Below, piece after piece: positions 531 through 51,556 of a DNA stretch of 64,000 nucleotides. The notes under the pieces are model-generated. The model made no database searches. It was given only the letters and a program-made list of their open reading frames with translations, and was not told the DNA's origin. Source of the stretch: an uncultured Candidatus Rokubacteria bacterium (GTDB taxonomy: Bacteria; Methylomirabilota; Methylomirabilia; Rokubacteriales; CSP1-6); assembly GCA_963747235.1 (NCBI GenBank), contig CAVVEU010000028.1:1-64000 (forward strand), read 5' to 3'. How positions within the stretch are numbered: position 1 is the stretch's first letter; every line of letters starts with the position of its first letter. The position numbers were made by a program, and so were the translations under genes.

Positions 531-1106
531 TCAGCGCGGCCAGGGCAGCGGGGTCGTCTCGTCCCAGGCGTCGGGTCGGATGCCGAACGCTTCGATCAGC
601 CGCTGCCAGCCGGACGCGACGGTGAGCGCGGCGCCCAGCTCCAGGATCTGCCCCTCGTCGAAGTGCTCCCGCAGCGTGGCCCAGAGCGCGTCGTCCACCC
701 GCGGTCGTTCCCCGCTCAGGCAGTCGGCGAGCCGCAGCGCGGCCACGGTTCGGGCCGGCAGATCGGCGTGGTCGAGATCGCCGAGCGCCTGCTGCACTTC
801 CGGCTCGGTCAGGCCCTTGCGCACCAACGATGCGCTGCGCGCGAGGCTTCAGTGCACGCACTGGTTGCGCTGGGCGAGGCGGATGCGGCAGAGCTCCACC
901 AGCGCGGGATCGAGGCTCGCGCCGCCCGCGTAGATGAACGTGACCCAGGCGAGGAACAGGTCGAGCACCGCGGGGCGGCGCGCGAGCGTGAGGAAGAGAT
1001 TGTCGTCCCGATAGGCCTTCGCGCGCCAGACGTCGAAGCGGCGCCGCAGCTCCGGATCGAGCCGCTCCGGATCGGCCTTGGGCAGGTGGCCGTGCTCGTT
1101 GGCCAT
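531..1106 (-). CDS. AhpD/carboxymuconolactone decarboxylase-like selenoprotein (CxxU; TGA at 849-851 read as Sec)
   Basis: ORFs 849..1145 and 531..827 are in the same frame, separated only by TGA plus 7 sense codons; ELCRIRLAQRNQCVH-U matches the AhpD CxxC site; hairpin downstream. Confidence 0.85.
819..835 (-). promoter_or_regulatory. Putative bacterial SECIS hairpin GCGCAUC-GUU-GGUGCGC
   Basis: 7-bp stem, GUU loop 20 nt after the in-frame UGA. Confidence 0.75.
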
Positions 1107-1113
1107 GCGGACG

Positions 1114-2172
1114 CTAGGCCTTCCGGAAGCGGTGCACGCCCTCACCGTCGACGAGGCGGGCGACCTGGCCCCGCGCTTCCAGGAAGTGCAGGTGCGCGAC
1201 GGTCTCGCCGATGGCGAAGCCGAGCTGATGCGTGTCGAGCTGTCGGCGGAAGAGCACCGGCACCAGCTCGTGCGCGGTGCGCGGCTCGGCGAGGGCGTCG
1301 ATCGCCTCGCTCAGGCGCTCGTCGTGGTGGTGCTGCAGGTAGTCCAGGCGCTTGTGCAGGCCGATGAACGGCAGCCCGTGCGACGGCAGCACCAGCGTCT
1401 CCTCGGGCAGCGGCCGGAAGCGTCCGAGCGAGTCCAGATAGAGCTTCAGCGGATTGCCATTGGGCTGATCCGGCCAGACGCTCACGTTGGTGGTGATCTT
1501 GGGCAGCACCTGGTCGCCCGAGATCAGCACGTTCGCCTCGGGGGAGAAGAGGCAGGCGTGCTCGGGCGCGTGCCCCATCACCGTGAACGCGTGCCACCGG
1601 CGCCCGCCGATCGTGACCACGTCGCCCTCGCGCACCGCCCGGAAGCTGGGCGCGACCGACGGCACGAGCTTCCGGTAGTTGTTGCCGAGCCCGCGAAAGG
1701 CCTCGGCCTGCTCGGCCGGGACGCCGTGACGGCGATAGTGGTTGAGCCGCTTCTCCGAGTCGTTGCCGCCCATCCCCTGCCAGGCCAGGTGGGCCATGAG
1801 CCACTCGGCCTGCGGGCACCAGAGCTCGACCCCGAAGCGCTGCGCCAGCCAGTCCGCGTTGCCGATGTGATCCGGATGGAAGTGGGTGACGAGCACGCGC
1901 ACGAGAGGCCGGCCGGCCAGCTCGCCGGTGAAGAGCTTCTCCCACAGCTCGCGCGTCGGCGGCAGGCCGATCCCGGTGTCCACCACCGTCACCCCGGCCT
2001 CGTCGTCGAGCAGCCACAGGTTGATGTGGTTGAGCTGGAAGGGCAGCGGCATGCGGATCCAGCGAATGCCGGGCGCCACCAGGATGCTCGTGCCGCCCTC
2101 GGGAGGCTCGGGCCAGGGATGCGTGAGACCGGGGGCGGGCGCGGCCAGCGGATGCTCGGGCTCGGGTTTCAT
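1114..2172 (-). CDS. MBL-fold metallo-hydrolase
   Basis: THFHPDH motif, GHAPEH, SGDQVL; start follows a TACAGT -10 box. Confidence 0.85.
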   Translation of the reverse strand: MKPEPEHPLAAPAPGLTHPWPEPPEGGTSILVAPGIRWIRMPLPFQLNHINLWLLDDEAGVTVVDTGIGLPPTRELWEKLFTGELAGRPLVRVLVTHFHPDHIGNADWLAQRFGVELWCPQAEWLMAHLAWQGMGGNDSEKRLNHYRRHGVPAEQAEAFRGLGNNYRKLVPSVAPSFRAVREGDVVTIGGRRWHAFTVMGHAPEHACLFSPEANVLISGDQVLPKITTNVSVWPDQPNGNPLKLYLDSLGRFRPLPEETLVLPSHGLPFIGLHKRLDYLQHHHDERLSEAIDALAEPRTAHELVPVLFRRQLDTHQLGFAIGETVAHLHFLEARGQVARLVDGEGVHRFRKA

Positions 2173-2237
2173 GGCCCCTACTGTACCCCGTCCGGCCGAT
2201 CCGCGGTACGCTGGGTCGGCCAAGGAGGGCCGAGACC

Positions 2238-2605
2238 ATGCCAAAGGGGACCCACCTCGCTCTCGCGACGATCCTGGTGACCCTGCTCGGCGGCTGCGCC
2301 GCGACCGCCTCCAACCCCGTGGAGTCACGAAAGACCGCGCGGAGTGCAAGGACTACGCGCGCGCCCACGAGCACTCCGGCCGGATGAAGGACGCCTGCCT
2401 GATCAGCCGCGGGCACACGGTGACCTACAACACGAACGGCGGCGGGGTCGAGGTGCGCTCGAAGGCCGAGCCGCGACAGCCCGTGGAGACCGTCGCCCGG
2501 GACCTGAAGGCGTGCAACGACGAGTCCGGGCTGGGCTACGCCGGCCGCCTGCAGTTCCGGCGGTGCATGGATCCGCGGGGCTACGCGGTCAGCAGCCGCG
2601 ACTGA
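2238..2605 (+). CDS. Hypothetical Cys-containing lipoprotein (frameshift near 2320)
   Basis: AGGAGG RBS, MPKGTHLALATILVTLLGG-C lipobox; continues in ORF 1886..2605 frame. Confidence 0.55.
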
Positions 2606-2611
2606 CGCGGC

Positions 2612-4225
2612 TCAGTCCACCGGAGCGGGGAGCGGGCGCACCTCGCCGGGCGCGTCCTCGCGTGGCGCGACCGGCTCGGCGTGCACGCGCCGCATGAGCG
2701 GCAGGAAGAGCGGCACGATCGAGAACAGGATCGCGAGCAGCCAGAAGTCGTCCGCGTAGGCCAGCACCTGCGCCTGGCTCACCACGTCGTGGTAGAGCAT
2801 GGCCGTCGCGCGGCGCTGCGCGGTGAACGAATCGGCGCCCTGGGCCAGGAAGTGGCTCGTCCACCGGGCCAGCCGCTCCTGGGTCGCGGGATCCCAGATC
2901 GTGACGTGGCTCACCAGGTTGTGCTGGTGGAACTGGCTACGCTGGGCCAGATACGTGGTCGCGAGCGCGATGCCCACGCTGCCCCCGAGATTGCGCAGGA
3001 CGTTGTAGGCCGACGTCGCGTTGACGAGCTTGTCCCGCCGGATGGTGGCCAGGGTCAGGGTGGACAGCGGCACGAAGATGAAGCCGAGCGCGAAGCCCTG
3101 GATGATGCGCGGCAGGGTCAGGCTCCAGTAGTCCATCCCGAGCGTGAGGTTCGACATCATGTAGAGGCTGAGCGCGTTGACCAGGCAGCCGAAGGTGAGC
3201 AGCACGCGCTGGTCTACCCGGGTCACCAGGCGCCCGCACAGGATGAGCGAGAACATGTTGCCGAGGCCGCCGGGGGCGAGCACGAGGCCCGAGGTCAGCG
3301 CGTCGTAGCCCAGCAGCTTCTGGGAATAGAGCGCGAGCAGCACCATGCCCGAGAACATGCCGAGGCCGATCAGGGCGATGAAGCTGGCCCCGAAGGCGAA
3401 GTTGCGGTCGGTGAACACCCGGAGGTCCAGGATGGGGTCCTTCGCCATCAGCTCGCGCACGAGGAAGCCGACCAGGGCCACGCCCGCGATCACCGCGAGC
3501 ACGATGATCATCCCGGAGTCGAACCAGTCCTCGCGCTCCCCGCGGTCCAGCATGAGCTGCAGGCACCCGAAGCCCAGCACCATCAGGACGAGGCCGGGCC
3601 AGTCCACCCGGCTCGGCTTCCGGAGATAGGGCGGATCGAAGAGGAAGGCGCCGGCCATGAAGAAGCCGAGCAGCCCGACCGGCAGGTTGATGTAGAAGAT
3701 CCAGCGCCACGACCAGTTGTCCGCGATGTAGCCGCCGAGCGTCGGCCCGATGATCGGCCCCATCATGAAGCCCACGCCCCACACCGCCATCGCGAGGCCG
3801 CGCTGGCCGAGCGGGAAGATCTCCCACAGGATGGCCTGGGAGAGCGGGATGATCGGGCCGCCCCCGATCCCCTGCGCGATGCGCGCGAGGATCAGGAACG
3901 TGAGGTTGGGCGCCATGCCCGACAGCACCGAGCTCACCGTGAAGAGCACGCAGCAGATCAGGAAGAAGCGCTTGCGGCCCAGGACCCCCGCGAGCCAGCC
4001 GGTGGCGGGAATGATGATGGCGTTGGCGGCCAGGTAGGAGGTGATGACCCACGACACCTCCTCGAGCCCCGCGGAGAGCGAGCCCTGCAGATGCGGCAGC
4101 ACCACGTTGGTCACGCTGGTGTCGAGCACCTGCATGAAGGCCACCACCATCACCGACAGCGTGATGGCCCACTTGCGGGCCGACGAGATCGGGCCGGTTT
4201 CTACTTCCGTGGGGGATGCGCTCAC
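2612..4225 (-). CDS. emrB: DHA2 family MFS efflux permease (EmrB/QacA-like)
   Basis: MQVLDTSVTNV, WVITSYL, WRWIFYINLPVG motifs; 537 aa. Confidence 0.9.
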   Translation of the reverse strand: MSASPTEVETGPISSARKWAITLSVMVVAFMQVLDTSVTNVVLPHLQGSLSAGLEEVSWVITSYLAANAIIIPATGWLAGVLGRKRFFLICCVLFTVSSVLSGMAPNLTFLILARIAQGIGGGPIIPLSQAILWEIFPLGQRGLAMAVWGVGFMMGPIIGPTLGGYIADNWSWRWIFYINLPVGLLGFFMAGAFLFDPPYLRKPSRVDWPGLVLMVLGFGCLQLMLDRGEREDWFDSGMIIVLAVIAGVALVGFLVRELMAKDPILDLRVFTDRNFAFGASFIALIGLGMFSGMVLLALYSQKLLGYDALTSGLVLAPGGLGNMFSLILCGRLVTRVDQRVLLTFGCLVNALSLYMMSNLTLGMDYWSLTLPRIIQGFALGFIFVPLSTLTLATIRRDKLVNATSAYNVLRNLGGSVGIALATTYLAQRSQFHQHNLVSHVTIWDPATQERLARWTSHFLAQGADSFTAQRRATAMLYHDVVSQAQVLAYADDFWLLAILFSIVPLFLPLMRRVHAEPVAPREDAPGEVRPLPAPVD

Positions 4226-4241
4226 GAGGGCCTCGCGGCGG

Positions 4242-5496
4242 CTACTTCAGGCGGATGACGACGTACGCGGACATGCCGGCCCGGAGCGTGTGCGGGTTGC
4301 CGAACTCCTTGGCGTTCAGCCGGATCTTCACCGGCACGCGCTGCACGACCTTGACCCAGTTGCCGGTGGCGTTCTCGGGCGGCAGGAGCGAGAAGCGCGC
4401 CCCGGTGCCCGCAGCGAGCGAGTCCACCGTGCCGTGGAAGACCTGGCCCGGGAAGGTGTCGATCTCGACCTCGGCGGGCATGCCCGGCTTCACGCGCGCG
4501 AGCTGCGTCTCCTTGAAGTTGGCGAGCACCCACACCTCGTGGAGCGGCACGATGGCGAGCAGGGGCTGGCCCATCTGCACCACCTGCCCCACTTCCACGC
4601 TCTTCTTCGCGATGACCCCGTCGGCGGGCGCGCGGACATCCGTGTGCTGGAGCTGCAGCTCCGCGAAGGCCAGGTCGGCCCGGGCCTGGTTCAGGCGTGG
4701 CCGCCGCGCGCTCGATCTCGGCTTCCTTCACCGTGACCTGCCGCCGCTGGCTCTCCACCCGCCCGAGCGCCGCGCGCGCCTCGTTGATGCGCTGCTTGGC
4801 CTGGCTCACCGCGAGCACCCGGCTGATCAGCGCGGCCTCCGCCTGCTGCACTTCCTTCTCGGCCTGGTTGAGGCGCCGCTGGGTCGCCTCCACGGTGGCC
4901 GCCGCGGTGCCCGCGCTCATCTCGGCCTGGTCGAAGTCGCGCTGGGACACGAAGCCGCCCTGGAGCAGGGTCCGCATCCGTTCCTTCTCCCGCGCGTTCT
5001 GGCGCAGCGTGCTCTGCGCGCCGGTCACGTCCGCGGCCGTCGCGGCCATCGCGGCGCGCTTGGCCTCCACGGTGGCCCGCGCCTCCGCCACCGCCGACTC
5101 GGCGGCCTGCTCCGCCACCTTGGCCGACTCCAGCGTGGCGCGCGACTCCTCGGCCTGGGCGCTCGTGGTCTCGCGGGTGAGCTGGGTCTCGGAGCTGGTG
5201 GCCTGGTGGCTCGCCTGCGCGACCGCCACCGAGGCCCGGGCCTGGTCGCGCCGGGCCTGGTAGTCGCGCGGATCGATGCGGAGCAGGAGATCGCCCGCCT
5301 TCACCGCGCGGTTGTCGTCCATGTGGACCTCGGCGACGTGGCCCGCGACCTTGGCGCTGATGATGACGATGCTGCCCTCGACGTACGCGTCGTCGGTGGC
5401 GATGCGCTTCGTGCTCTGCCACCAGGCGTGGCCGCCCCAGCCGAGGGCGGCGAGGGCCACCACGACGGCCAGGCCGATCAGACGCCGGTGTCTCAT
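4242..5496 (-). CDS. emrA: HlyD/EmrA family membrane fusion protein (frameshift near 4695)
   Basis: TDDAYV, VKAGDLLLRIDP, ANFKETQL, FSLLPPENATGNWVKVVQRVPV in two frames. Confidence 0.85.
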
Positions 5497-5542
5497 CGGG
5501 GGGTATGCTACCACCCCGACATTGGGCTGAGAAATAGCTGAT

Positions 5543-6409
5543 TTACTTGAGTTGGTCCGAGGGGACGACGCGGTACCGTCCGGGGAACTGCTCGAAGAGG
5601 GCGTTGATCTCCTGCTGCGAGCGCTCCATGCGCTGCCCGGTGGTGGTGTCCTCGATCACCCAGCGGCCCTGGAGCGTCATCCCGGTCAAGCGCTGATGCC
5701 ACTCGGTCGTGCGCCGGCCCTCGGCGGTGCTCTGCATGATCCGGTTGGTCTCCTGCATGGTGAGCATGGCCTGGGCGGTCCGGCGATTCATCTCGCCCTG
5801 GCTGATGCTCCACGACTGCCAGACCTCGGTCATCAGCGGGAGCGCCTGCGCGAAGATCTCGGCGGGCGCGGTCAGCAGGGTCATGTAGTACTGCCAGTAG
5901 CCGTTGCCGAGCATCGCGGTGTTGACCAGCGCGAAGGCGCGATAGCGCCGGCCCTGCGTGATCTGCTCCGCCAGGAGATACACCGCGCGCGCGTTCTGGG
6001 TGAGCGGCGGCGTCGGGACCATCTCCACGATCCGCGCCTGCGCGGAGCCGCCGGTCCGGCGCGCCACCACCTCGGAGACCCACACGTACGCCTCGGCCGG
6101 CGGCATGTAGGGGGCCGCGAGCGAGCCCGGCGAGCTGAACTGGGGCGGGCCGATCGGCATCGTGATGCCCACCGCGACCGCCTCGCCCCGTGGGCCCTGC
6201 AGCTCCGCGGCGGCCTGCCGCGCGCTGTTGAGGCGCCAGCCGGGCGGCATCGCGATGCTGCCGCTGCCGTCGGGGAACTGGGTGCGCGGCCAGCTCTGGC
6301 CGGCACGGGCGGGCGGCGAGCCGGGCGGCTGCGCGGGGACACCGGGCGCGACGGCGAGAACGAGCACGATGGCCACAGCCACCGCGCGCGTGAGCGATCC
6401 AGAGGGCAT
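5543..6409 (-). CDS. Hypothetical secreted protein
   Basis: Signal-peptide-like N-terminus, coding-like codon usage, 288 aa. Confidence 0.7.
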   Translation of the reverse strand: MPSGSLTRAVAVAIVLVLAVAPGVPAQPPGSPPARAGQSWPRTQFPDGSGSIAMPPGWRLNSARQAAAELQGPRGEAVAVGITMPIGPPQFSSPGSLAAPYMPPAEAYVWVSEVVARRTGGSAQARIVEMVPTPPLTQNARAVYLLAEQITQGRRYRAFALVNTAMLGNGYWQYYMTLLTAPAEIFAQALPLMTEVWQSWSISQGEMNRRTAQAMLTMQETNRIMQSTAEGRRTTEWHQRLTGMTLQGRWVIEDTTTGQRMERSQQEINALFEQFPGRYRVVPSDQLK

Positions 6410-6495
6410 GAGGGTGGGCGGTCCGGCGACACTCTACCCTATTCCGGCTGTTTCTGCGGCTTGACGGCGCCCGCCCGGCGGGCCAGTATCACGCC

Positions 6496-7545: not shown

Positions 7546-7554
7546 CATGATCGC

Positions 7555-9134: not shown

Positions 9135-9152
9135 GGCGCCCCGCGCGACCGC

Positions 9153-9857: not shown

Positions 9858-9876
9858 CCGGCCCCGGCGCTCCGGG

Positions 9877-39356: not shown

Positions 39357-39362
39357 GAAGCC

Positions 39363-39752
39363 CTAGGCCCGGCGCACGGGCACCTCGACCGGGACCTTCA
39401 TCGCGCGGCTGATCCGGCAGCCCTCGGCCGCCTCCTGGAGCCGGGCGAGCTGGGCGTCATCGAACGTGCCCTCCACCACCAGCTCTCCCTCGACGCCGGT
39501 GATCTGCCCCTGGGCTTCCGTCGCGGTGAGGCGGGCCCGGAGGCCGCGCACCACCCACTGCTGGCGCTCGGCGAACCGCCGAACGTTGTTGATGCGTCAG
39601 GCGCCGATGGCGCCCAGGAGGAGCTCCGCGGGCGAGGGCGCGCCGTCCGCGCCCCCGGCCTCCGCCGGCGCGTCCATCTCCAGGCGGTGCGGGCCCGCCG
39701 CTCCCTCGACCTTCATGCCGGACACCCACTGCACCGTCACCGCTCTGCCCAT
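39363..39752 (-). CDS. OsmC/Ohr-like selenoprotein (TGA at 39597-39599 read as Sec52)
   Basis: MGRAVTVQW...PSPAELLLGAIGA-U-RINN...EGCRIS; TGA at the first conserved Cys, second Cys retained; hairpin downstream. Confidence 0.85.
39565..39585 (-). promoter_or_regulatory. Putative bacterial SECIS hairpin CGUUCGGCG-GUU-CGCCGAGCG
   Basis: 9-bp stem, GUU loop 20 nt after UGA; lower stem CGCAUCA/UGGUGCG. Confidence 0.78.
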
Positions 39753-39798
39753 AGGTCCGCGCCTCCCCAGCGCGTCACACCTCCGCCCCGGCGGGCCA

Positions 39799-40668
39799 TC
39801 AGCGGAACCGCGCGATCACGTCCTTGCCGTAGCGCAGGACGTCGTCGGGCGTCTTCACCTGCGCGGGCAGGCCCGCCGCGGCGCTGACCGGCACCGCGAC
39901 GCGCGCCACGCCCTGGCGGGCCAGCGCTTCGATCTCCGCCAGATCGGTGGGCGCCGCGACCGTGATCTCGATCGCCTTCGGGTCGCGCCCGGCGGCCTCG
40001 GCGGCGCGCCGCATCTCGTCCAGGAGCCCGGGCGACGGCGTCCGGGCGGGGAAATAGCCGTCGCCGAGCCGGCCGGCGCGCCGCGCGGCCGCCGCCGTGT
40101 CGCCGCCCACGATGATCGGGATCGACCGCGCAGGCGGCAGCGGCCGGCAGAACACCCGGTCGAACGAGATGAACTGCCCCTTGAACGACGCGCACTCCTG
40201 GCTCCACAGCGCGCGCATCGCCTCCACGTACTCGTCGGTGCGCGGCCCGCGGTCCGCGAACGGCAGCCCGAGGGCGGCGAACTCCTCGGCGAGCCAGCCC
40301 ACGCCGATGCCGAGCAGGACGCGGCCACCGCCGGCCAGGTGGTCGAGCGTCGCCACCGCCTTCGCGGTGACCACCGGGTTGCGCTGCGGCAGGATCAGGA
40401 TCGCGGTGCCGAGCTTGATCGTGCGCGTGGCTCCCGCCACGTAGGCCAGCCAGATCAGCGGGTCCGGGATCGGGAAGTCCTCGAGCCCCGAGCCCATGCG
40501 CCCCGAGGCCGAGTACGGGTAGCGCGACTGGTAGCCGTGCGGCACCACCACGTGCTCGACCGTCCAGATGGACTCGAAGCCCGCCGCCTCGGCGGCCTGC
40601 GCCAGCTCCACCGCCGCCGGTCCGTTGCTGTAGCGTCCCAGGCTCGCGTAGCGAAGTCCGAATTTCAT
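39799..40668 (-). CDS. LLM-class (putative F420-dependent) oxidoreductase
   Basis: GFESIWTVEHVVVP, RNPVVTAKAVATLD, LGIGVGWLAEEF. Confidence 0.88.
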   Translation of the reverse strand: MKFGLRYASLGRYSNGPAAVELAQAAEAAGFESIWTVEHVVVPHGYQSRYPYSASGRMGSGLEDFPIPDPLIWLAYVAGATRTIKLGTAILILPQRNPVVTAKAVATLDHLAGGGRVLLGIGVGWLAEEFAALGLPFADRGPRTDEYVEAMRALWSQECASFKGQFISFDRVFCRPLPPARSIPIIVGGDTAAAARRAGRLGDGYFPARTPSPGLLDEMRRAAEAAGRDPKAIEITVAAPTDLAEIEALARQGVARVAVPVSAAAGLPAQVKTPDDVLRYGKDVIARFR

Positions 40669-42018
40669 GGCTGTCCTCCTTTGAAGGTCAGGGCCAGGAG
40701 CCCGTCGACGTCGGAGAGCGCGGGCAGGCGGCCGAGGGTCTCGAGGAGCCGCTCGACCTGCGCGGTGGGCAGCACGACCCCGGCGAGCCGGCGGAACTTC
40801 TCTTCGACTTCTGGCCGAGAAACGGGGTGGCCCGGGGTGCCCCGCGCGGCCCGCACCGTCTCGTCGAGCACGCGCCCGTCGCGGAGCCGGACCCGCATCC
40901 TCGCCTCGGGGATGCGGAGGGCGGGGTCGGCGACGGCCCGGATCCGGCCCGCCAGCGCGACGAGGCCCGGATCGGGCGCCGCGAAGTCCGACTCCGCGGC
41001 CGCGCCGCCGGTCAGCGCCAGCGCGGCGCAGTACGCGGCGCTGAACTTGGCCTCGAGCCCCGTCCGGGGCTCGGGGATCGCCGCGACCTTCACCGCGAGC
41101 GGATGCACGTGGCACTCGACCTCCGCGATCGCCTCGGCGGTCGGCGCCGCGCGCTCGCGGATCGCGCGGCCGGCGTCGATCGCCGCGTGGAGCAGGTGGC
41201 ACGCGGCGTAGAGCTTCGTGCTGTTGTCGAGGATCTCGAAGCGGGTACCGAGGTCCGCGAGCGCCGGAGTCAGATCGGTGACCCCGACGAACGTGGCGGC
41301 GAACCCGTCGTGGCCGTCCAGGATGCCGGTCGGGCCCGTGAACCCCTCGCGCGCGAGCAGCGCGGCCAGGATGCCGTTCATCGCGGCCTTCCCGGGATGG
41401 AGCGGCTTGCTCATGGTGCCGAGCGACTGCTCGAGCCCCGCGGCCTGGGTCCCCGCGATCCCGAGCGCCCGCCCGAGCTGCTCGGCGGTGAGGCCCAGCA
41501 GCTTGCCGGCCGCCGCGACCGCGCCGAAGTGGCCGAGCATCGCGGTGACGTGCCAGCCGCGGTCGGCGAGCTTCGGGCCGATCACCCGCCCGATCCGCGT
41601 CTCGACCTCGAAGCCGGCGACGAAGGCCTCGACGACCGCGCGCCCCGGCCGGCGGCGCCACTCCGCGATCGCGAGCGCCGCGGGCGCCACCGGCGCCGAG
41701 CCGTGGACGATCGAGGCCAGGTGCGTGTCGTCGAAGTCGAGCGCGTGGCCCTGGGCGCCGTTGGCCAGCGCGGCCAGCAGCGCGCTCGTGCGCCGGCCCC
41801 GCCCGATGATCGTCGCCTGCGGGTCGCCGCCGGTCGCGCCCACCACCGCGTCGAGCGCGGCGGCGAGCGGCTCGGTCGAGCCGCGGATGGCGACGCCGAT
41901 CCAGTCGGTGAGGCAGAGGCCGCGCGGCCTCGGTGACCGCGGCGGGGAGCGACCGGAGCTCGAGCCCCAGCACGAACTCGACCAGCGCGTCCGCGACGGG
42001 CGTGCCTCGATCGTTCAT
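40665..42018 (-). CDS. MmgE/PrpD family protein (frameshift near 41925)
   Basis: HALDFDDTH, GWHVT, SKPLHPG, KLYAAC, AKFS. Confidence 0.88.
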
Positions 42019-42686
42019 GGAGAGATCACGTGCTCGGTGGTGATGATGATCGGCAGCTCGCCGGGCGCGATGAAGTTCGGCTCGTCGGCCCGGACGCGCG
42101 CGTACTGCGCGGTCACGGCCGACGCGCGCATCGCCTGCGTGTCGTCGAACCACGTGATGGCCAGGCCGTCGTAGGCGGGGATCCGCCCGCGCTCGTAGGC
42201 GGACGGGCGCGTGGGGCTCTGCACGTAGCGGCGGATCATCGGGATCTGCGCGGCGAGCGGACCGTGGACCTCCTTCCAGTGGCGCCGGAACTCGTCCAGC
42301 GCGAGGCCGGGCTTGCGGACGACGAACTCGACGTTCTTCGCGGCCCCGGGCGGCACGGGATCGTCCTTGATCACGTGCTCGTCGGTGAGGATCACGCGCT
42401 TCGTCGCGGAGTCCATGAAGCGGGGCTCGTCGGCGTCGACCGCGGCCAGCGCGTCGGTGCCACGGAGAGCGTGCATCGCCTGGCTGTCGTCGAACCAGAC
42501 CTCGGCGATGCCATCGTAGATCGGCTCGCCCTTCCGGTAGCCAGCCAGCCGCGTATGCGACTGCACGTAGCGCCGGATCCCCGGCAGCCGGACGACCACC
42601 GCGGGATGGCGCTCGCGCCAGTAGGCCTGGAACTCCTCCACCGCCATCCCGGCCTTCCGCTTCAGGCAGGTCACGACCTTGATCAC
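42015..42686 (-). CDS. Tandem EthD-domain protein
   Basis: Two repeats of EF..YW...H..RRYVQS..YDG.A..WFDD. Confidence 0.85.
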   Translation of the reverse strand: MIKVVTCLKRKAGMAVEEFQAYWRERHPAVVVRLPGIRRYVQSHTRLAGYRKGEPIYDGIAEVWFDDSQAMHALRGTDALAAVDADEPRFMDSATKRVILTDEHVIKDDPVPPGAAKNVEFVVRKPGLALDEFRRHWKEVHGPLAAQIPMIRRYVQSPTRPSAYERGRIPAYDGLAITWFDDTQAMRASAVTAQYARVRADEPNFIAPGELPIIITTEHVISP

Positions 42687-42748
42687 GCGGGGACTATAGC
42701 AGCCGGCCGCGCCTTGACGCCACCGCGGCCCCCGTGCACTATCCGCCC

Positions 42749-44167: not shown

Positions 44168-44415
44168 CCGGCGTTCCTCGATCCTTCTACGCGGCCGCCC
44201 GCGCGGACCCGTTCCCGAGCCGACTCGAGTCGCGACGACAGCTGCCCCTTCGCCTGATCGAGCAGCACCTCGGACTTCTCCTGCACGGTCCGGAGCAGCC
44301 CGTCGATCGTGTCCCGCGCCGGAGCCGAGTTCCCGCTCACGTACTCACGGAGCGTGTCCCGGTATTTCCACATGACCATCCCACCCGCGATTGCTACGAG
44401 GACCCGTCCCAGCAT
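44164..44415 (-). CDS. Small hypothetical protein (N-terminal TM plus amphipathic helix, YtxH-like)
   Basis: AAGGAGGA RBS; sigma-54 motif upstream. Confidence 0.65.
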   Translation of the reverse strand: MLGRVLVAIAGGMVMWKYRDTLREYVSGNSAPARDTIDGLLRTVQEKSEVLLDQAKGQLSSRLESARERVRAGGRVEGSRNAG

Positions 44416-44448
44416 GTGTTATCCTCCTTGTGCCTGGAGGTCCGAGCA

Positions 44449-44463
44449 GCAAGGCCCGTGCCG
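44449..44463 (-). promoter_or_regulatory. Sigma-54 (-24/-12) promoter
   Basis: CGGCACGGGCCTTGC = GG-N10-GC, near consensus TGGCACG-N4-TTGC. Confidence 0.7.
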
Positions 44464-44608
44464 CGCCTGGAAATGGGCCTTGTTTCACCTGATCCGAACG
44501 GTTCGGGGGAGATCGGACGCATCGGAGCTCCTCGTTCGGTAGGAAGGAGTCGGACCTTTCTACACGGTCACGCCCTGGAGTCGCGTGCGCGCGTCGCGAT
44601 AGGGCCCG

Positions 44609-45373: not shown

Positions 45374-45452
45374 CGGATGTCGTCTCCCTGGACCGGGAGA
45401 TTACTCGAAACGCCAGCGCGGTGACAGCCGCTTCGCGTGATAGTCTCGCGCA

Positions 45453-46752
45453 ATGCCCCGATCTGGCCCGACCGCGCGCGCCGGCTGGCGGGCGCGACTC
45501 GGCGACCCGATGACGGGCGCGGTGCTCGCGCTCGGCATCACCCAGATCACCGCCTGGGGGACGAGCTACTACTGTCTCGGCGTGCTGGCGGGGCCGATCA
45601 GCCAGGACACCGGCTGGAGCCGCGGCTTCGTCTTCCTCGGCTTCACCGTCGCCCTGCTCGCCATGGGGCTCGTCTCGAGCACGGTGGGCCGGGCCATCGA
45701 CCGGCACGGCGGACGCGCGGTGATGACGCTCGGCACCGTGCTCGTGTCCGCCGGCCTGTTCGCCCTCGCCCACGTCCACCGCGAGCCGGCTTATCTGGCG
45801 GTCTGGGTGTTCCTCGGCCTCGGCATGCGCATGTGCCTGTACGACGCCGCGTTCGCCGCGCTGGTGCAGGTCGCCCCCTCGCGTGGGCGGACGGCGATCT
45901 CCTACCTCACCCTGTTCGGGGCGTTCGCGTCGACGGTGTTCTGGGTGGTCGGCCACGCCCTGGAGGAGCAGGTCGGCTGGCGGCAGACCCTCGTCCTGTT
46001 CGCCCTCATCAATCTGGTGGTGTGCCTGCCGCTGCACTGGCTGCGGCCTCGCCCGGCGCGAGGCCGGCGAGGGCGTGGCCGCCCCGACGGGCAAGCCCGC
46101 GGCGTCCCCGGACGGCCCGCCGCTCGAAGGGCGCGCGCGCTCGGTCGCCATCGCGCTCTTCGCCCTCATCATGTCGCTCAACGGGTTCGTGTTCGGCGTC
46201 ATCTCGGTGCAGCTCGTCCCGATGCTCGAGGCCGCGGGTCTGATGACGGCGGCCGCGGTCTGGGTCGCCTCGATGAAGGGCGTCGCCCAGTTCGGCGGGC
46301 GGGTGGTCGAGATCCTGTTCGCCCGCAACCTCCGGGCGATCACGGTGGGCCGCATCGCGGTCGGCATCCTGCCCCCGACGCTGCTCTTGCTGCTGTTCGG
46401 GACCGGGAGCCTGTCGATGGTCGTCGCGTTCACGCTGCTCATGGGCGCATCCCAGGGCGTCATCACGATCGTCCGGGGCGCGGTACCGCTCGCGCTGTTC
46501 GGCGTGAAGGGGTATGGCGCCGTGCTCGGCGCCATCGCCACGCCGGTGCTCGTCGTCAACGCCGCCTCGCCCACCGCCTTCGCGTGGATCGTGGACCGCT
46601 GGGGCTGGGGGACGGCGCGCGTGGTGCTCCTGGTGAGCTGTTCCGCCGGGTGGCTCGCGATGGAGCTGATGTCGCGCTGGTACGAGCGCCAGCGGGAGGC
46701 CGTCGGTGGCGGCCCGGCGGCGCGGCCACCGGGCGCGCCACGCAAGACCTAG
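45453..46752 (+). CDS. MFS transporter (frameshift near 46042)
   Basis: LGITQITAWGTSYY, GRAIDRHGGR, LYDAAFAAL. Confidence 0.85.
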
Positions 46753-46759
46753 AACGTCA

Positions 46760-46942
46760 TCACGACGCCTTCCGTTGGTTGGCCAGGGTGCGCGCCTCAG
46801 CGGAACGGACTCCGGCCCGGGCCTTCGCTTCTGCTTTGGCTTCCTTCTCTTGCTTCGCGCTCTTGCGGAGACGAGCGAAATGCGCGGCATCGGCGGCTTC
46901 GATCTTCTGGATGAGGGCGAGCATCCTGGGGCTGATTGCCAT
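46760..46942 (-). CDS. Small basic helical hypothetical protein (60 aa)
   Basis: GGAGGGAG RBS-like sequence, MAISPRMLALIQKIE..., K/R/A rich. Confidence 0.45.
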   Translation of the reverse strand: MAISPRMLALIQKIEAADAAHFARLRKSAKQEKEAKAEAKARAGVRSAEARTLANQRKAS

Positions 46943-47443
46943 TGAGGCTCCCTCCCGCGGGGAACGGAATCGGCTCCAACAGAGACATAGTACCGCCACC
47001 CGGAGCGCGCCGCTGATCAAGTCACGGGGCAACGGGCGGTGAGGCGAGCGCGGGAGCGGGCCCCGCCTACGGAGCTGGCAAATACGCCGCGAGATCCCCC
47101 TCGGTCTGCTCGAGCCGGCGCGCGAGTTCCCGAATCCACGCTCGCCATCACTTCGATGACGAGGCGCTCCGCACTCTACGGCGCCTCGCGGCTCGGCGCG
47201 CCGGTCCAGATCCGTGGCCATCTGGTCAAGTCCTCTCTGCCAGGTTTCGCCCACCACCGTCGTGGACGCGCGCGAAGAACGGCAGGGAGGTGGACGATCA
47301 CTTACGGCGGGCGCGCGATCCAGTTCTCGATGGCCGACCACTCCATGATCGCCCCATCGAGACGTCCGGCAAGCCCGGAATCGGAACGGCCCAAGGTAGC
47401 GGGAGTGGCAGGACGCCACGCTTCGTCTAACCGAGTGATTGAT

Positions 47444-47521
47444 TGGCGGGCTCGACGGGATTTGAACCCGCGACCTCTGGATTGACAGTCCAGTGTGCTA
47501 ACCAGGCTGCACCACGAGCCC
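47444..47521 (-). tRNA. tRNA-Asp (GTC)
   Basis: Cloverleaf: GGGCTCG/CGAGCCC acceptor stem, CTGGA-CTGTCAA-TCCAG anticodon arm, TTCAAAT T-loop, encoded CCA. Confidence 0.96.
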
Positions 47522-47570
47522 GAAGGATTACCGTAACCGTGTAGTTGTACCACGCGACCTCCCGGCCTGT

Positions 47571-48170
47571 CTATCCGCCCACCGCGGGGCGGCGCGGGGC
47601 GCACTCGAGGCCGGCGGTCCAGGCGAGCTGCCGGGGGTAGCGGCCCAGCAGGTCGGCGATCTCGTCGCACGGGGGCCGGTGGCCGAGCAGGTCCTCGCCG
47701 GGGGCCCGGAGCAGGCGGCGGTGGACGTTGAGCAGGTAGCTGTAGACCATGCGCAGGGACTGGTCCTCCGGCACCTGGCGCACCCAGGCCAGGATCTCCA
47801 CCGCCTTGGCATTGGCGTCCAGCTCGCGCTGCTCGACCTCCCGCCGGCGGGCGTCGGTGGTGGCGCCGACCAGGGGCGCGTCGTGGCCCAGGACATAGTG
47901 GGCCAGCTCGTGCGCCACGATGGCGTCGCGGAACTCCGAGCCCAGCACCAGGCGGTTCACCGCGAAGAACCCGCGCCGATAGGACCCGACCGGGCTGTCC
48001 GGGTTGTGGCTCACCAGCACGTGGATGGGCTCCAGGCCGTAGCGGCGGGCGGTCTCGTCCGCGAAGGCGCGGACCTCGTCGAGGCTCCGGTCCTGGCCGG
48101 GGGTCAGCGTCGAGCAGGCGGCCGCCAGCGCCGCCGTCGCCACGAGCCCCGCCAGCCGCGACGCCCTCAT
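47571..48170 (-). CDS. M48-like zinc metallopeptidase lipoprotein
   Basis: LAAAC lipobox, AHELAH, ELDAN. Confidence 0.75.
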   Translation of the reverse strand: MRASRLAGLVATAALAAACSTLTPGQDRSLDEVRAFADETARRYGLEPIHVLVSHNPDSPVGSYRRGFFAVNRLVLGSEFRDAIVAHELAHYVLGHDAPLVGATTDARRREVEQRELDANAKAVEILAWVRQVPEDQSLRMVYSYLLNVHRRLLRAPGEDLLGHRPPCDEIADLLGRYPRQLAWTAGLECAPRRPAVGG

Positions 48171-48208
48171 GGCGGAAGTCTAGCAAACAGGGCAGAATGT
48201 GGCTCGCC

Positions 48209-49969
48209 ATGACGACCCCGACGACGACCCCAACGACTCCATCAACGCTCCGCAGCCGCAACTGGTTCGCCCCCAAGAACCTCGACGGCTTCATGCACCG
48301 CGCGTATCTGAAGGCCGAGGGCTTCAGCGACGCGGTCTTCGACGGCCGCCCGGTGATCGGGATCTGCAACTCGTGGTCCGAGCTGAACAACTGCAACGCC
48401 CACCTGCGGCAGGTGGCGGAGGCGGTCAAGCGCGGGGTGTGGAGCGCGGGCGGCTTCCCGCTCGAGTTCCCGGTGATCTCGCTCGGCGAGATCCTGATGA
48501 AGCCCACCACGATGCTCTTCCGCAACCTGATGGCGATGGACGTGGAGGAGTGCATCCGCGCCTATCCCCTCGACTCGGTCGTGCTGCTCGCCGCCTGCGA
48601 CAAGACCACGCCCGCCATGCTGATGGGCGCGGCCTCCGCGGACGTGCCCGCCATCATGGTGACGGGCGGGCCGATGCTCAAGGGCATGTGGTGCAACCAG
48701 GAGCTCGGCTCGGGCACGGACGCGCGCAAGATGTGGGCGCAGCGCCGGGCCGGCGAGATCACCGACGAGGTGATGGCGGAGGTCGAGGCCTGCCTCTCGC
48801 GCTCCAGCGGGCACTGCATGGTGATGGGCACCGCGTCCACGATGGCCGCGATGGCCGAGACGCTCGGCCTGGCCCTGCCGGGCAACGCGGCGATCCCCGC
48901 GGCGGACTCGCGGCGCCTGGCGCTGGCCGAGATGTCCGGCCGCCGCGCGGTGGAGATCGCGCTGGCGCGCGGGCCCAAGCCCTCCGAGATCCTGACCGCG
49001 GCGGCCTTCGACAACGCGATCCGCGCGGACATGGCCCTGGGCGGCTCCACCAACGCGATCGTGCACCTGGTGGCGCTCGCGGGGCGCGCGGGCGTGCCGC
49101 TGCCGATGCGCCGCTTCGACGAGCTGTCGCGCACCACGCCGCTGCTGGCCAACGTGCGGCCCTCGGGCAAGCACCTGATGGAGGATTTCTACTATGCGGG
49201 CGGCGTGCCCGCGGTGCTGCGCGAGCTGCTGCCGATGCTGGACGGCAACGCCCTCTCGGTCAACGGCAAGACGCTGCGGGAGAACGTGGCGGACGCGCCC
49301 TGCCACGACTCCGACATCATCCGGCCGCTCTCGCTGCCGCTCCAGCCCGAGGGCGGCACCGTGATCCTGACCGGCAACCTCTGCCCGGGCGGCGCGGTCC
49401 TCAAGCAGTCCGCCGCCTCCCCGCACCTGATGGTCCATCGCGGCCGCGCGGTGGTCTTCGAGGACCATCTCGATCTCGAGCGGCGCATCGACGACCCGTC
49501 GCTGCCCATCGACGAGAACTCCGTGCTGGTGCTCAAGCACGCCGGGCCCAAGGGCGGCCCCGGCATGCCCGAGTGGGGCGCCGCGCCGGTGCCCGCGCGC
49601 CTGCTGAAGGCGGGCGTGAAGGACCTGGTGCGCATCTCGGACGCGCGGATGAGCGGCACCTCCTACGGCACCGTGGTGCTGCACGTCACGCCGGAGTCCG
49701 CGGTGGGCGGCCCGCTGGCGCTGGTGCGGAATGGCGACGAGATCGAGCTGAACGTGCCGGAGCGCCGGCTGACCCTGCGCGTGCCCGACGAGGAGATCGC
49801 GCGGCGGCGCGCGGCGTGGAAGCCGCGGCCCGACGGCGTCACCAGCGGCTATCTCCGCATGTTCCTCGACCACGTGCTGCAGGCCGACGAGGGCGTGGAC
49901 TTCGACTTCCTGCGCGGCCGGCGCCCGGTGGTGGACGAGGACACCGCGCACGGCTCGAGGCTCGCCTGA
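48209..49969 (+). CDS. IlvD/Edd family dehydratase (sugar-acid dehydratase-like)
   Basis: NNCNAHL, CDKTTP, GHCMVMGTASTM, SDARMSGTSYG. Confidence 0.9.
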   Translation: MTTPTTTPTTPSTLRSRNWFAPKNLDGFMHRAYLKAEGFSDAVFDGRPVIGICNSWSELNNCNAHLRQVAEAVKRGVWSAGGFPLEFPVISLGEILMKPTTMLFRNLMAMDVEECIRAYPLDSVVLLAACDKTTPAMLMGAASADVPAIMVTGGPMLKGMWCNQELGSGTDARKMWAQRRAGEITDEVMAEVEACLSRSSGHCMVMGTASTMAAMAETLGLALPGNAAIPAADSRRLALAEMSGRRAVEIALARGPKPSEILTAAAFDNAIRADMALGGSTNAIVHLVALAGRAGVPLPMRRFDELSRTTPLLANVRPSGKHLMEDFYYAGGVPAVLRELLPMLDGNALSVNGKTLRENVADAPCHDSDIIRPLSLPLQPEGGTVILTGNLCPGGAVLKQSAASPHLMVHRGRAVVFEDHLDLERRIDDPSLPIDENSVLVLKHAGPKGGPGMPEWGAAPVPARLLKAGVKDLVRISDARMSGTSYGTVVLHVTPESAVGGPLALVRNGDEIELNVPERRLTLRVPDEEIARRRAAWKPRPDGVTSGYLRMFLDHVLQADEGVDFDFLRGRRPVVDEDTAHGSRLA

Positions 49970-49970
49970 G

Positions 49971-51197
49971 ATGGCCCCCGAATCAACAGTCGCCTCCACC
50001 GACGCGGTCGTCATCGGCTCGGGCGCCTTCGGCGCCTCCACCGCGTACCACCTGGCGAAGCGCGGCTTCAAGGTCACGCTGGTGGACCAGCACGCGCTGG
50101 GCTCGCAGACGTCGCCGCGCGCGGCCGGGCTCACCAGCAAGGCCGACACGATGCCCACGATGGCGCGCCTGCGCCACGAGGCCTGCGAGGCCTTCGAGCG
50201 CTTCGAGAGCGAGATGGGGCGCACGGTGGACTTCCACCGCTCGGGCAGCCTGCGCGCGGCCTACACCGACGCGGCGGTGGAGCGCGTGCGCATCGCGCAG
50301 GAGACCGCGCGCGTCTGCGGCATCGAGGCGCGCCTGATCGACGCCGCGGAGGCCGAGCGGCTGGCGCCCCACTTCAAGCCGGGCGCGGCGCGCGCGATCC
50401 TGCACGTGCCGAGCGACGGCTGGGTGGATCCGGCCAGGGTCGCGATCGGCTTCGCCACCCGCGCGGGCGAGCTGGGCGTGCGCCTGCTCCCCTTCACGCC
50501 CGTGCAGGGCCTGCTGAGCGAGGGCGGCCGCGCCACCGGCGTCATGACCCCGCGCGGCGAGATCCGCGCGCCGGTGGTGGTGGACGCGGCCGGCGGCTGG
50601 ACCGCGCGCGTGGCCGCGGGCGCCGGCATCCAGCTCCCGCTGATTCCCGTGCGCCATCAGCTCTTCATCACCGAGCCGATCGCCGGCGTGGAGCCGCTGC
50701 AGCCCATCGTGCGGCTGGTCGAGGCCAGCGTGTACGTGCGCTACGAGCAGGGCGGCCTGCTCTTCGGCGGCTACGAGGACGCCCCGCGCGTGCTCGGGCG
50801 CGAGGGCCTGCCGCCGGGCTTCCAGATCGCCGCGCTCGAGCTGGACCTGGGCGTCCTGCGCGCGCTGGTCAACGAGGTGGGCGCGCACTTCCCGGCCCTG
50901 CGCGACGCGAAGATCGCGGTGCACCGGGGCGGCGCGCCGACCATGACGCCCGACGGCCGGCCCATCGTGGGCCGCGTGCCCGGGCTCGACGGACTCTACG
51001 TGGCCTCGGGCTGCTGCGTGGGCGGGCTCAGCCTCTCCCCCGCCGCCGGCCGCGCCCTGGCCGACCTGATCGTGGACGGCAAGAGCGATCCCGATCTGGC
51101 CCCGATCTCGGTCGAGCGCTTCGCCGACGGCCACCGCGATCCCGCCGCCCTCGAGGCGGCCTGCGTGGCGCAGTACGCGCGCCGCTACACCCATTGA
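49971..51197 (+). CDS. FAD-dependent oxidoreductase (DAO family)
   Basis: VIGSGAFG, TSPRAAG, TPDGRPIVG. Confidence 0.88.
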   Translation: MAPESTVASTDAVVIGSGAFGASTAYHLAKRGFKVTLVDQHALGSQTSPRAAGLTSKADTMPTMARLRHEACEAFERFESEMGRTVDFHRSGSLRAAYTDAAVERVRIAQETARVCGIEARLIDAAEAERLAPHFKPGAARAILHVPSDGWVDPARVAIGFATRAGELGVRLLPFTPVQGLLSEGGRATGVMTPRGEIRAPVVVDAAGGWTARVAAGAGIQLPLIPVRHQLFITEPIAGVEPLQPIVRLVEASVYVRYEQGGLLFGGYEDAPRVLGREGLPPGFQIAALELDLGVLRALVNEVGAHFPALRDAKIAVHRGGAPTMTPDGRPIVGRVPGLDGLYVASGCCVGGLSLSPAAGRALADLIVDGKSDPDLAPISVERFADGHRDPAALEAACVAQYARRYTH

Positions 51198-51208
51198 GGA
51201 GACATCCC

Positions 51209-51556
51209 ATGGCCCGAGTCGACTGGAGCTATCACCGCAACGGCTGAATGACCTGCGCCAAGACGCAAGGGTTCCTTGCCAAGCACAAGGTCACGGTGGC
51301 GCAGCAAGCCGACGCGAAGAAAGCCACCATCAAGGGCGCGGCCGCGCTCGACGTGCTGGACGGCGTGGACGAGCTGTACGTGGCCAAGGGCAAGAAGATC
51401 GAGCACGTGGATCTGCGCAAGACCAGGCCGGATCGCGCCACGCTCCTGGCGCTGCTGCTGGGGCCGACCGGCAACCTGCGCGCGCCCACGCTGCGCAAGG
51501 GCCGCACGCTGATCGTCGGCTTCGAAGAGGCGACCTACAAGAAGGTGCTCGCGTAG
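51209..51556 (+). CDS. ArsC/Spx-like thioredoxin-fold selenoprotein (UxxC; TGA at 51245-51247)
   Basis: GAGGAG RBS, MARVDWSYHRNG-U-MTCAKTQ..., LLGPTGNLRAP..IVGF; hairpin downstream. Confidence 0.88.
51265..51279 (+). promoter_or_regulatory. Putative bacterial SECIS hairpin GCAAGG-GUU-CCUUGC
   Basis: Perfect 6-bp stem, GUU loop 23 nt after UGA; lower stem UGACCU/AGGUCA. Confidence 0.8.

Follow-up and report, generated by a model that had tools for sequence, protein, structure and literature searches.

Do three short genes, each interrupted in frame by a TGA codon in a 64,000-nucleotide stretch of DNA (hereafter the window, always at its full length), encode selenoproteins, or do these TGAs end or disrupt the genes, or stand for another amino acid? 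The window belongs to a Rokubacteria-type (Methylomirabilota) soil bacterium, and an earlier note on it had described three small redox genes with TGA at a catalytic cysteine (Cys), a description that stands, given that each gene has one internal TGA and that alignment to PDB structures places each TGA on a Cys (Table 1). We conclude with high confidence that all three are genuine bacterial selenoprotein genes, with insertion of selenocysteine (Sec) predicted at each UGA. The three are not linked to one another and belong to a larger set, of at least 34 UGA-Sec sites across the genome, and the three protein families, the type of hairpin and the selenium-rich habit of the phylum have all been described already.

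Table 1 Positions of the three genes, their Sec codons and hairpins, and adjoining genes in the window.
Feature	Position	Strand	Basis
Gene 1, AhpD/CMD-like selenoprotein, 191 aa, motif C83-V-H-U86	531..1106	-	Pfam, NCBIfam, PDB alignment
Gene 1 predicted Sec codon (UGA), context NQCVH-U-SLAR	849..851	-	Aligned to 2prr
Gene 1 predicted SECIS hairpin, 7 bp stem, GUU loop (826-828, + coordinates)	819..835	-	Folding
Gene 1 terminal stop, likewise TGA	531-533	-	Reading frame
MBL-fold hydrolase gene; gene 1 begins 5 nt past its stop	1114-2349	-	
Gene 2, OsmC-like selenoprotein, 129 aa, U52 and second conserved Cys in EGCRISRA	39363..39752	-	Pfam, PDB alignments
Gene 2 predicted Sec codon (UGA), context AIGA-U-RINN	39597..39599	-	Aligned to 2onf, 1ml8
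Gene 2 predicted SECIS hairpin, 9 bp stem, GUU loop (39574-39576)	39565..39585	-	Folding
Luciferase-like monooxygenase ORF; gene 2 sits 44 nt downstream	39799-42153	-	
FAD-dependent oxidoreductase gene; gene 3 begins 12 nt after	49971-51197	+	
Gene 3, ArsC-family (Spx-like) selenoprotein, 115 aa, motif U13-M-T-C16	51209..51556	+	NF041106
Gene 3 predicted Sec codon (UGA), context NG-U-MTC	51245..51247	+	Aligned to 1z3e
Gene 3 predicted SECIS hairpin, 6 bp stem, GUU loop (51271-51273)	51265..51279	+	Folding, covariation

Protein families and the position of the TGA

Gene 1 matches the Pfam CMD domain (PF02627) at 32.9 bits (cut-off 23) and carries CxxU, which places it among the AhpD-like/CMD-like selenoproteins (PF02627 or COG2128 with CxxU), known from metagenomic data (Sargasso Sea, GOS) and listed in PMC2398784 and in the available part of PMC13188914. 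It resembles this family in its domain, its motif and the placement of U on the second Cys, the TGA aligning with the second Cys of the AhpD-core CxxC in 2prr; however, it scores below the NCBIfam cut-offs both of TIGR01926 (38.9 vs. 81.8) and of NF053654, a selenoprotein-specific model for YciW-related (seleno)proteins (37.7 vs. 310), and we therefore treat it as a separate subfamily. Homologs with Cys at the TGA site exist at 49–65% identity and read NQCVHCS or NNRCTHCS there. Elsewhere in the genome, an AhpD-like paralog (C33, TGA 9413) loses its frame about 25 codons past the TGA.

For gene 2, the match to Pfam OsmC (PF02566) reaches 46.6 bits (cut-off 27.5), giving membership of the OsmC-like selenoproteins (PF02566, UxxT, NF041052), with which it shares the fold and Sec on the first conserved Cys. 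That position was identified by alignment to OsmC-fold proteins (PDB 2onf and 1ml8), and the second conserved Cys is kept. The gene differs from the catalogued family in having U-R-I-N in place of UxxT and in scoring 45 against NF041052 (OsmC_like_Se), below the cut-off of 95, while a canonical member in the same genome (C17, TGA 12685), with U-L-M-T, reaches 159.7 bits with that model. Stop-free paralogs or homologs of gene 2 are found at 35–38% identity.

Gene 3 is a plain member of its family, without notable difference: it scores 142.8 bits (cut-off 85) against NCBIfam NF041106, “ArsC family (seleno)protein” (the “Arsenate reductase 2”, cd03032, of the GOS study), and carries the UxxC motif. 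Its match to Pfam ArsC (22.7 bits) is slightly below the cut-off of 24, and the TGA corresponds to the first Cys of the Spx CxxC in 1z3e. The earlier statement that AhpD-, OsmC- and ArsC-like selenoprotein families are known is borne out, as all three appear in the catalogues of PMC2398784 or the available part of PMC13188914.

Conservation of the TGA and of the hairpin among relatives

A comparison with relatives had been proposed as a check, and in a search of 40 of them the TGA was retained in each close ortholog found, with the hairpin conserved too. Of 20 genomes of the same genus, 19 have a close ortholog of gene 1, each with the TGA, and one has none; among the relatives searched such close copies are confined to the window’s own genus, with the Cys homologs found elsewhere. 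Its hairpin is invariant in 12/12 orthologs, amid variable flanks. The TGA of gene 2 is kept in eight close orthologs (83–96% identity) and in distant ones at 36–43%; the hairpin is the same across nine close sequences (the gene itself and the eight orthologs, L038–L046) apart from one C-to-U change that pairs as U-G, and three distant orthologs (L047–L049) have a UGUAC loop and compensatory changes in the stem. For gene 3 the TGA is present in 16 close orthologs and in two more at 63–65% identity.

The ArsC family extends this comparison across phyla. TGA stands at the Sec site in 73 of 80 loci and TGC or TGT in the other seven, the TGA loci carrying labels such as Planctomycetota, Acidobacteriota, Obscuribacterales, Nitrospinae, KSB1 and Gemmatimonadales, among others. 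Aligned hairpins of this family have 87% paired cells (29–60% in slid controls), 38 sequences have an A-U closing pair and 30 a G-C pair, and the covariation score over 74 sequences, which include compensatory changes, is 0.281, compared with 0.152 in shuffles (reached by 0/500). Third codon positions also vary little just past the TGA of gene 3, with changes in 3 of the 14 post-TGA codons against 70/99 elsewhere (Fisher p = 0.00058); the corresponding differences are weak for gene 2 (3/14 vs. 57/114, p = 0.051) and gene 1 (7/14 vs. 129/177, p = 0.12).

A small hairpin follows each TGA

Folding reproduced the stems of 6–9 bp and the identical GUU loop reported earlier, the distance from the UGA to the start of the loop being 20, 20 and 23 nt in genes 1, 2 and 3: GCGCAUC-GUU-GGUGCGC (7 bp), CGUUCGGCG-GUU-CGCCGAGCG (9 bp) and GCAAGG-GUU-CCUUGC (6 bp), respectively. 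The experimental archetype of such bacterial SECIS elements is that of E. coli fdhF. The bSECIS model, as set out in the available part of PMC13188914, allows loops of 3–9 nt with a G in the first two loop positions and a spacing of 16–37 nt, and also sets a minimum free energy of −7.5 kcal/mol or lower; all three hairpins agree with it in loop size, G position and spacing. Further likenesses to this consensus (bSECISearch model) are the location just 3′ of the UGA within the coding region, the small apical loop with G then U and the upper stem of 6–9 bp, the window’s triloops lying at the small end of the permitted range. The hairpins use codons that are otherwise rare, as had been noticed before (TTG and CTT make up 1.5% and 1.6% of Leu codons, GTT 1.5% of Val codons and CAA 4.4% of Gln codons), to which GCA (1.5% of Ala codons) can be added.

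The “plausible lower stem” proposed in the same note has to be given up: folds of the whole 65-nt regions are no better than dinucleotide shuffles (z = −0.05, −1.0 and −0.74 for genes 1, 2 and 3), and the 3′ halves vary among orthologs without compensation. We consequently dropped fold-energy significance as SECIS evidence. An Rfam scan of the window found no SECIS family at the gathering threshold, its sole match being one tRNA. Genome-wide, of 302 in-frame TGAs with coding signal on both sides, 13 have a GUN triloop with a stem of 6 bp or more 14–26 nt downstream, compared with 12 of 10,804 TGC codons taken in the same context (~39-fold), so that the association exceeds chance.

Sec machinery and the genome-wide set

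The genome is a metagenome-assembled genome (MAG) of 5.57 Mb and 71% GC, 88% complete with 4.9% contamination, and the check for Sec machinery proposed in the earlier note succeeded, all four components being present above curated cut-offs: selA (578 bits, cut-off 268), selB (365, 242), selD (228, 125) and selC, the tRNA-Sec (69.3, gathering threshold 47), for which ARAGORN agrees and gives the anticodon TCA. They lie, as that note had it, outside the window, on contigs C14 and C27, so their assignment to one organism with the window depends on the binning. Of 24 public sequencing runs, none reached half of the sampled words.

Screening this 88%-complete genome, by a hairpin-first search, intragenomic Cys/Sec pairs and family scans, yielded at least 34 TGA-Sec sites, in keeping with the selenoprotein-rich organism that had been suspected. 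This screen replaced one based on codon scores (strong coding signal over 30 codons per side), which returned mostly consecutive genes in the same frame and missed those of the window. Nine of 40 extra candidate sites were discarded: two stops separating distinct genes (L172, L177), two apparently ordinary stops just beyond the matched domain (L179, L180) and five without a family match spanning the TGA (L174, L175, L176, L178, L181). GUN triloops are the commonest loop class (15/34; five GUU, five GUG, three GUA and two GUC), the remainder being GGA, GGC, GGU or 4–7 nt long, and the spacing clusters at 19–20 nt (17/34). At 34 sites per 5.57 Mb one would expect 0.39 per 64 kb (Poisson P of three or more = 0.007), a clustering to which we give no weight because the window was chosen for these genes. 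Proteins of the DUF411/CopG-like type with a T-U-G-C-C motif were also observed as a candidate selenoprotein family.

Alternative readings of the TGA and of the shared loop

The TGAs could be true stops in pseudogenes or split genes, or errors of sequencing or assembly, as might be supposed from public gene calls that split or truncate such genes at the TGA and from the AhpD-like paralog described above, which does go out of frame. We give this hardly any credence, since genomes assembled independently share the same single TGA (in 19, 8 and 16 close orthologs of genes 1, 2 and 3), the protein is conserved on both sides with the family domain spanning the codon, and a conserved hairpin stands immediately 3′ of it. 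Decoding as Trp, Cys or Gly, through a reassigned code or near-cognate suppression, is very improbable. In public JGI data, some close homologs are indeed translated with W or G at the site (P0004, P0005, P0021), which we attribute to the annotator’s choice of code; TGA is the commonest stop codon, terminating 527 of 903 long ORFs, and the code is therefore not reassigned. Gene 1 itself also ends in TGA. In addition, the in-frame TGAs retained by the homology test fall at Cys positions of redox motifs, and the genome holds a complete Sec pathway.

Selenocysteine remains the preferred reading, and within it the GUU triloop shared by the three genes had been taken for a lineage-specific SECIS consensus, a class for which this lineage would have a specialised SelB. 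GUU is indeed present in all three window genes, GUN triloops are the commonest loops of the genome, and the spacing clusters at 19–20 nt. GUU itself, however, occurs at only 5 of the 34 sites, two of them from a gene present in two identical copies; within the ArsC family, the GUU triloop lies exactly 23 nt from the TGA in 65 of the 73 TGA-bearing loci, in many phyla; distant gene 2 orthologs have UGUAC instead; and all these loops fall within the general bSECIS model as given in the available text of PMC13188914. We consider a lineage-specific class unlikely, and the claim of such a consensus is not supported, in view of the GUU count, the cross-phylum ArsC loop and the fit to the general model.

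Discussion

The case for Sec is carried by the TGA and the hairpin, the conservation and covariation of both, the Sec machinery and the pairs of Cys and Sec homologs, and it is based on conservation and not on thermodynamics because whole-region folds are no better than shuffles in DNA of 71% GC. From these observations we infer Sec insertion itself, SelB binding and the enzymatic roles of the three genes. During translation, SelB, a specialised elongation factor, would bring Sec-tRNA(Sec) and bind a small hairpin 16–23 nt past the UGA whose apical triloop displays G-U, and Sec would be placed at the UGA instead of release factor 2 acting there. In three thiol-oxidoreductase folds, Sec would substitute for the nucleophilic or redox-active Cys: in AhpD the second Cys of the CxxC, in OsmC/Ohr the first conserved Cys, and in Spx/ArsC the first Cys of the CxxC, a replacement that probably makes peroxide and disulfide chemistry faster or more resistant to oxidation.

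The novelty that had been attached to these genes is not upheld: the families are catalogued, the hairpins fit the published bSECIS consensus, and a large selenoproteome in the phylum is already in print according to the available part of the review (PMC13188914), which refers to 63 selenoprotein genes predicted in a Methylomirabilota MAG (Deng et al. 2026, Cell Rep 45:116760). The present genome is of the same phylum and, as in the account of that MAG given there, has a very large selenoproteome dominated by thiol oxidoreductases, here with at least 34 sites. Our result leaves knowledge of Sec decoding unchanged, and adds an independent count to the recent claim of record-size selenoproteomes in Methylomirabilota. 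The DUF411 (TUGCC) family may be undescribed; it is absent from the available part of the 2026 catalogue (PMC13188914). A broader picture can be offered tentatively, and is possible without being the likelier outcome: a genus with one of the largest bacterial selenoproteomes, with subfamilies outside curated models (the AhpD-like and OsmC-like genes of the window) and with the DUF411 family, in which SelB may prefer GUN triloops 19–20 nt from the UGA.

The suggestion that gene callers miss such genes, leaving them hidden, applies to genes 1 and 2, whose public homologs are mostly halved at the TGA or carry W or G there, and does not apply to gene 3, which scores above the NF041106 cut-off. A simple rule, an in-frame TGA followed 16–26 nt downstream by a small GUN or G-rich loop, finds such genes in DNA of 71% GC. 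The practical value of the finding lies in annotation: a widespread soil phylum has its redox enzymes systematically mis-called.

Three reading frames with an in-frame TGA at a redox cysteine

The three window genes proved to be reading frames as the earlier note had described them, each with an in-frame TGA at a redox Cys position, and the match to cysteine was borne out by structure alignments. The TGA of gene 1 (AhpD/CMD-like) aligns with the second Cys of the AhpD-core CxxC (2prr), that of gene 2 (OsmC-like) with the first conserved Cys of OsmC-fold proteins (2onf, 1ml8), the second being kept, and that of gene 3 (ArsC-family, Spx-like) with the first Cys of the Spx CxxC (1z3e). Pfam assigned them to CMD/AhpD, OsmC and, slightly under threshold, ArsC, respectively. 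Among NCBIfam models, gene 3 matched NF041106, "ArsC family (seleno)protein" (142.8 bits, cut-off 85), while the matches of genes 1 and 2 to selenoprotein-aware models were weak (NF053654, 37.7 against a cut-off of 310; NF041052, 45 against 95). All three lie directly downstream of a same-strand enzyme gene, which suggests co-transcription with it. The sole tRNA in the window is not tRNA-Sec. The window also has three copies, where none is expected by chance, of a GC-rich, perfect 9 bp palindrome, CCTCTCCCC-NNN-GGGGAGAGG, which resembles a REP-like or terminator element; its translation (…GRGQGEGW…) turns up within spurious ORFs.

The claim that these genes are hidden from standard annotation held for genes 1 and 2, whose close relatives among public proteins are mostly fragments, but not for gene 3, which the NCBIfam selenoprotein model covers. 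Close public relatives of gene 1 (about 65-93% identity) are mostly pieces spanning ~40-55% of the query, such as a "carboxymuconolactone decarboxylase family protein" of 111 residues at NCBI, which comes from a Rokuibacteriota MAG and begins directly after the TGA, and its full-length entries (49-65% identity) carry Cys, or in one case G, at the Sec codon. The fragments related to gene 2 include N-terminal ones ending in ...LLLGAIGA and at least one C-terminal one, alongside two full-length JGI calls in which the TGA is read as W. In three JGI translations of close homologs (P0004, P0005, P0021) the Sec codon is rendered as W or G, and their contigs were evidently called under a code that gives TGA an amino acid.

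Coordinates of features in the window and elsewhere in its genome (G000)
Feature	Location	Strand	Details
Gene 1	window 531-1106	−	191 residues; one internal TGA, 849-851; NQCVH-U-SLAR; terminal stop a second TGA
MBL-fold hydrolase gene	window 1114-2349	−	upstream of gene 1, 5 nt gap
Gene 2	window 39363-39752	−	129 residues; TGA 39597-39599; AIGA-U-RINN
Luciferase-like monooxygenase ORF	window 39799-42153	−	upstream of gene 2, 44 nt gap
tRNA-Asp (GTC)	window 47444-47521	−	
Gene 3	window 51209-51556	+	115 residues; TGA 51245-51247; NG-U-MTC
FAD-dependent oxidoreductase gene	window 49971-51197	+	upstream of gene 3, 12 nt gap
9 bp palindrome	window 51576-51596, 53412-53432, 59961-59981		one copy shortly past the gene 3 stop
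selD	C27:44747-48445 (L010), ORF 1150-3594	−	C-terminal end of an 814-residue frame
selD-like stretch	C8:303114-303868		
DUF411 (PF04214) protein L148	C8, TGA 425315	+	Pfam 97.5 bits
DUF411 (PF04214) protein L167	C39, TGA 67433	+	Pfam 95.9 bits
DUF411 fragment	C42:186-513		
UGSC-family genes (seven)	C8 271466, C8 277300, C19 8870, C24 627008, C33 208097, C33 157179, C40 391489		NF041046, 84-164 bits
Prx (BCP-type) copy	C9, TGA 13839	−	
Prx (BCP-type) copy	C33, TGA 382866	+	
AhpD-like gene	C33:9134-9620	−	TGA 9413; CRY-U

Machinery for selenocysteine decoding

The window lies on contig C28 of a 5.57 Mb genome (42 contigs, 88% complete, 4.9% contamination), and the selA, selB, selC and selD genes that the earlier note had proposed to look for are all present in it, so that Sec decoding is possible. 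Contig C14 carries selB (365 bits), selA (578 bits) and tRNA-Sec (69.3 bits with Rfam; tRNA-SeC with anticodon TCA in ARAGORN) inside ~5 kb, and selD (228 bits) is found on C27, in a frame that has a CGGC motif, with Cys rather than Sec, and that resembles the Ndh-SelD fusion mentioned in the accessible text of the GOS paper (PMC2398784). A second selD-like stretch, on C8, was matched by the model in three successive pieces in differing frames and could be either a pseudogene with frameshifts or a fault of the assembly. TGA is the commonest ordinary stop, terminating 527 of 903 long ORFs, so that the code is not reassigned.

Hairpins downstream of the TGA codons

Folding of the 65 nt from each UGA reproduced exactly the spacings reported for the GUU-loop hairpins, with perfect stems of 7, 9 and 6 bp and triloops starting 20, 20 and 23 nt past the UGA in genes 1, 2 and 3, respectively; the additional lower stems showed no conservation across orthologs. 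Total fold energies are ordinary for a genome of 70.9% GC (z −0.05, −1.0 and −0.74), so that thermodynamics alone is no proof. The case against chance comes from the genome as a whole: of the in-frame codons flanked on both sides by coding signal, 13 of 302 TGA vs 12 of 10,804 TGC are followed at 14-26 nt by a GUN triloop whose stem has 6 bp or more. The hairpins are indeed built from rare codons, as the earlier note had remarked: TTG, GTT, CTT, GCA and CAA make up just 1.5-4.4% of their synonymous sets.

Both the TGA and the hairpin are retained in the close orthologs of all three genes found by a search of 40 related genomes. Of 20 same-genus genomes, 19 contain a close ortholog of gene 1 (81-92% identity), each with a single TGA; gene 2 has eight (83-96%), all with TGA, plus remoter TGA-bearing ones at 36-43%; and gene 3 has 16 (84-92%) and two at 63-65%, again all with TGA. 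Hairpin nucleotides are constant in the 12 aligned loci of gene 1 and the 12 of gene 3, and among the nine close sequences in the 12 aligned loci of gene 2 bar one still-pairing C-to-U; in every case synonymous differences restart just downstream. Third-position variation in the 14 codons past the TGA was 7/14 (rest of gene 129/177; Fisher p 0.12) in gene 1, 3/14 (57/114; p 0.051) in gene 2 and 3/14 (70/99; p 0.00058) in gene 3. Distant OsmC orthologs have a UGUAC loop with three compensated stem positions.

With each species represented by a single genome, a scan of the ArsC family gave 80 loci, the nearest titled Rokubacteria/Methylomirabilota and others labelled Acidobacteriota, Planctomycetota, Obscuribacterales, Nitrospinae, KSB1 and Gemmatimonadales, among others. 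The aligned codon is TGA in 73 and TGC or TGT in seven, and 65 of the 73 have a GUU triloop exactly 23 nt downstream. The GUU loop, which had been taken for a lineage-specific consensus, thus belongs to this family in many phyla and not to this lineage. In an alignment of 74 sequences, 87% of hairpin cells are paired vs 29-60% in slid controls, the closing pair varies (A-U in 38, G-C in 30), and the covariation score (0.281 vs 0.152 in shuffles) was reached by none of 500 shuffles; judged from these comparisons, the hairpin is under RNA-level selection. Two loci titled Verrucomicrobiia and Dormiibacterota (L064, L065) share 86-87% identity with gene 3, on a par with the Rokubacteria loci, and the labels or binning of these MAG records look doubtful.

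Candidate selenoproteins across the genome

Outside the window, a hairpin-first screen with intragenomic Cys/Sec pairing, supplemented by hand, yielded 40 candidate sites; family scans accepted 31 of them and rejected nine. With the window's three, the genome has at least 34 TGA-Sec candidate sites, a lower bound because the screen demanded an uninterrupted stem of 5 bp or more, and the proposal of a selenoprotein-rich organism is upheld. These comprise UGSC (7), AhpD/CMD-like (5, one frame broken), Prx or Prx-like (5, two being identical copies), ResA/TlpA-like (3), OsmC-like (3), Grx-like (2), PrdB/GrdB-like (2), DUF411 (2), and one each of ArsC-family, PDO, MoeB, FdhA and MerB-like. Apical loops are GUU (5), GUG (5), GUA (3), GUC (2), GGA (2), GGC (2) and GGU (1), and in the other 14, of 4-7 nt, the first or second nucleotide is G. 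Automatically picked UGA-loop spacings are 16-32 nt, mostly 17-20; the only 32-nt case (C4 89848) folds with an AGUUG loop at 22 nt. Loops and spacings agree with the published bSECIS consensus as restated in the accessible text of a 2026 review (PMC13188914).

The seven UGSC genes have near-identical SECIS cores (a GUG, GUA or GUC triloop 19 nt past the UGA), and at two loci (L146; L181 beside L157) the domain adjoins a conserved uncharacterised protein, "...GDGLPxIPPT/ATxERV...". The Prx copies on C9 and C33, identical over the compared stretches, could be a real duplication or MAG redundancy. In the AhpD-like gene on C33, which has a good GGC-loop hairpin, the frame is lost ~25 codons past the TGA, the remaining domain continuing in another frame.

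Relation to published selenoproteins

The accessible text of the review (PMC13188914) lists AhpD-like and CMD-like (CxxU), OsmC-like (UxxT), arsenate reductase-like NF041106 (UxxC) and UGSC selenoproteins, and cites Deng et al. 2026 for a Methylomirabilota MAG with 63 predicted selenoprotein genes, a new upper bound; earlier record selenoproteomes had 39-46 genes, according to the accessible text of the deep-Sep paper (PMC12013277). The families named in the review also appear in the accessible text of the GOS paper (PMC2398784). The novelty claimed for the window does not survive, since its protein families, the form of the SECIS and the selenoprotein richness of the phylum were all already known. 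Our literature search on selenoproteins of Rokubacteria and Methylomirabilota found no dedicated study of the group's selenoproteome.

The two DUF411 proteins of this genome have an in-frame TGA within a T-U-G-C-C motif, followed by a hairpin, and neither has an NCBIfam match at 1e-5; among the 31 matches listed for this and the 40 related genomes, 24 have one TGA and seven none. Neither "DUF411" nor "PF04214" occurs in the accessible text of the review, and our literature search found no paper linking DUF411 with selenocysteine. On this sequence evidence DUF411 may be a selenoprotein family not yet described. Genes 1 and 2 add new subfamily members to known selenoprotein kinds and, as far as sequence comparison can tell, genes 1-3 are almost certainly real UGA-Sec genes in a selenoprotein-rich organism, as the earlier note had rightly read them.
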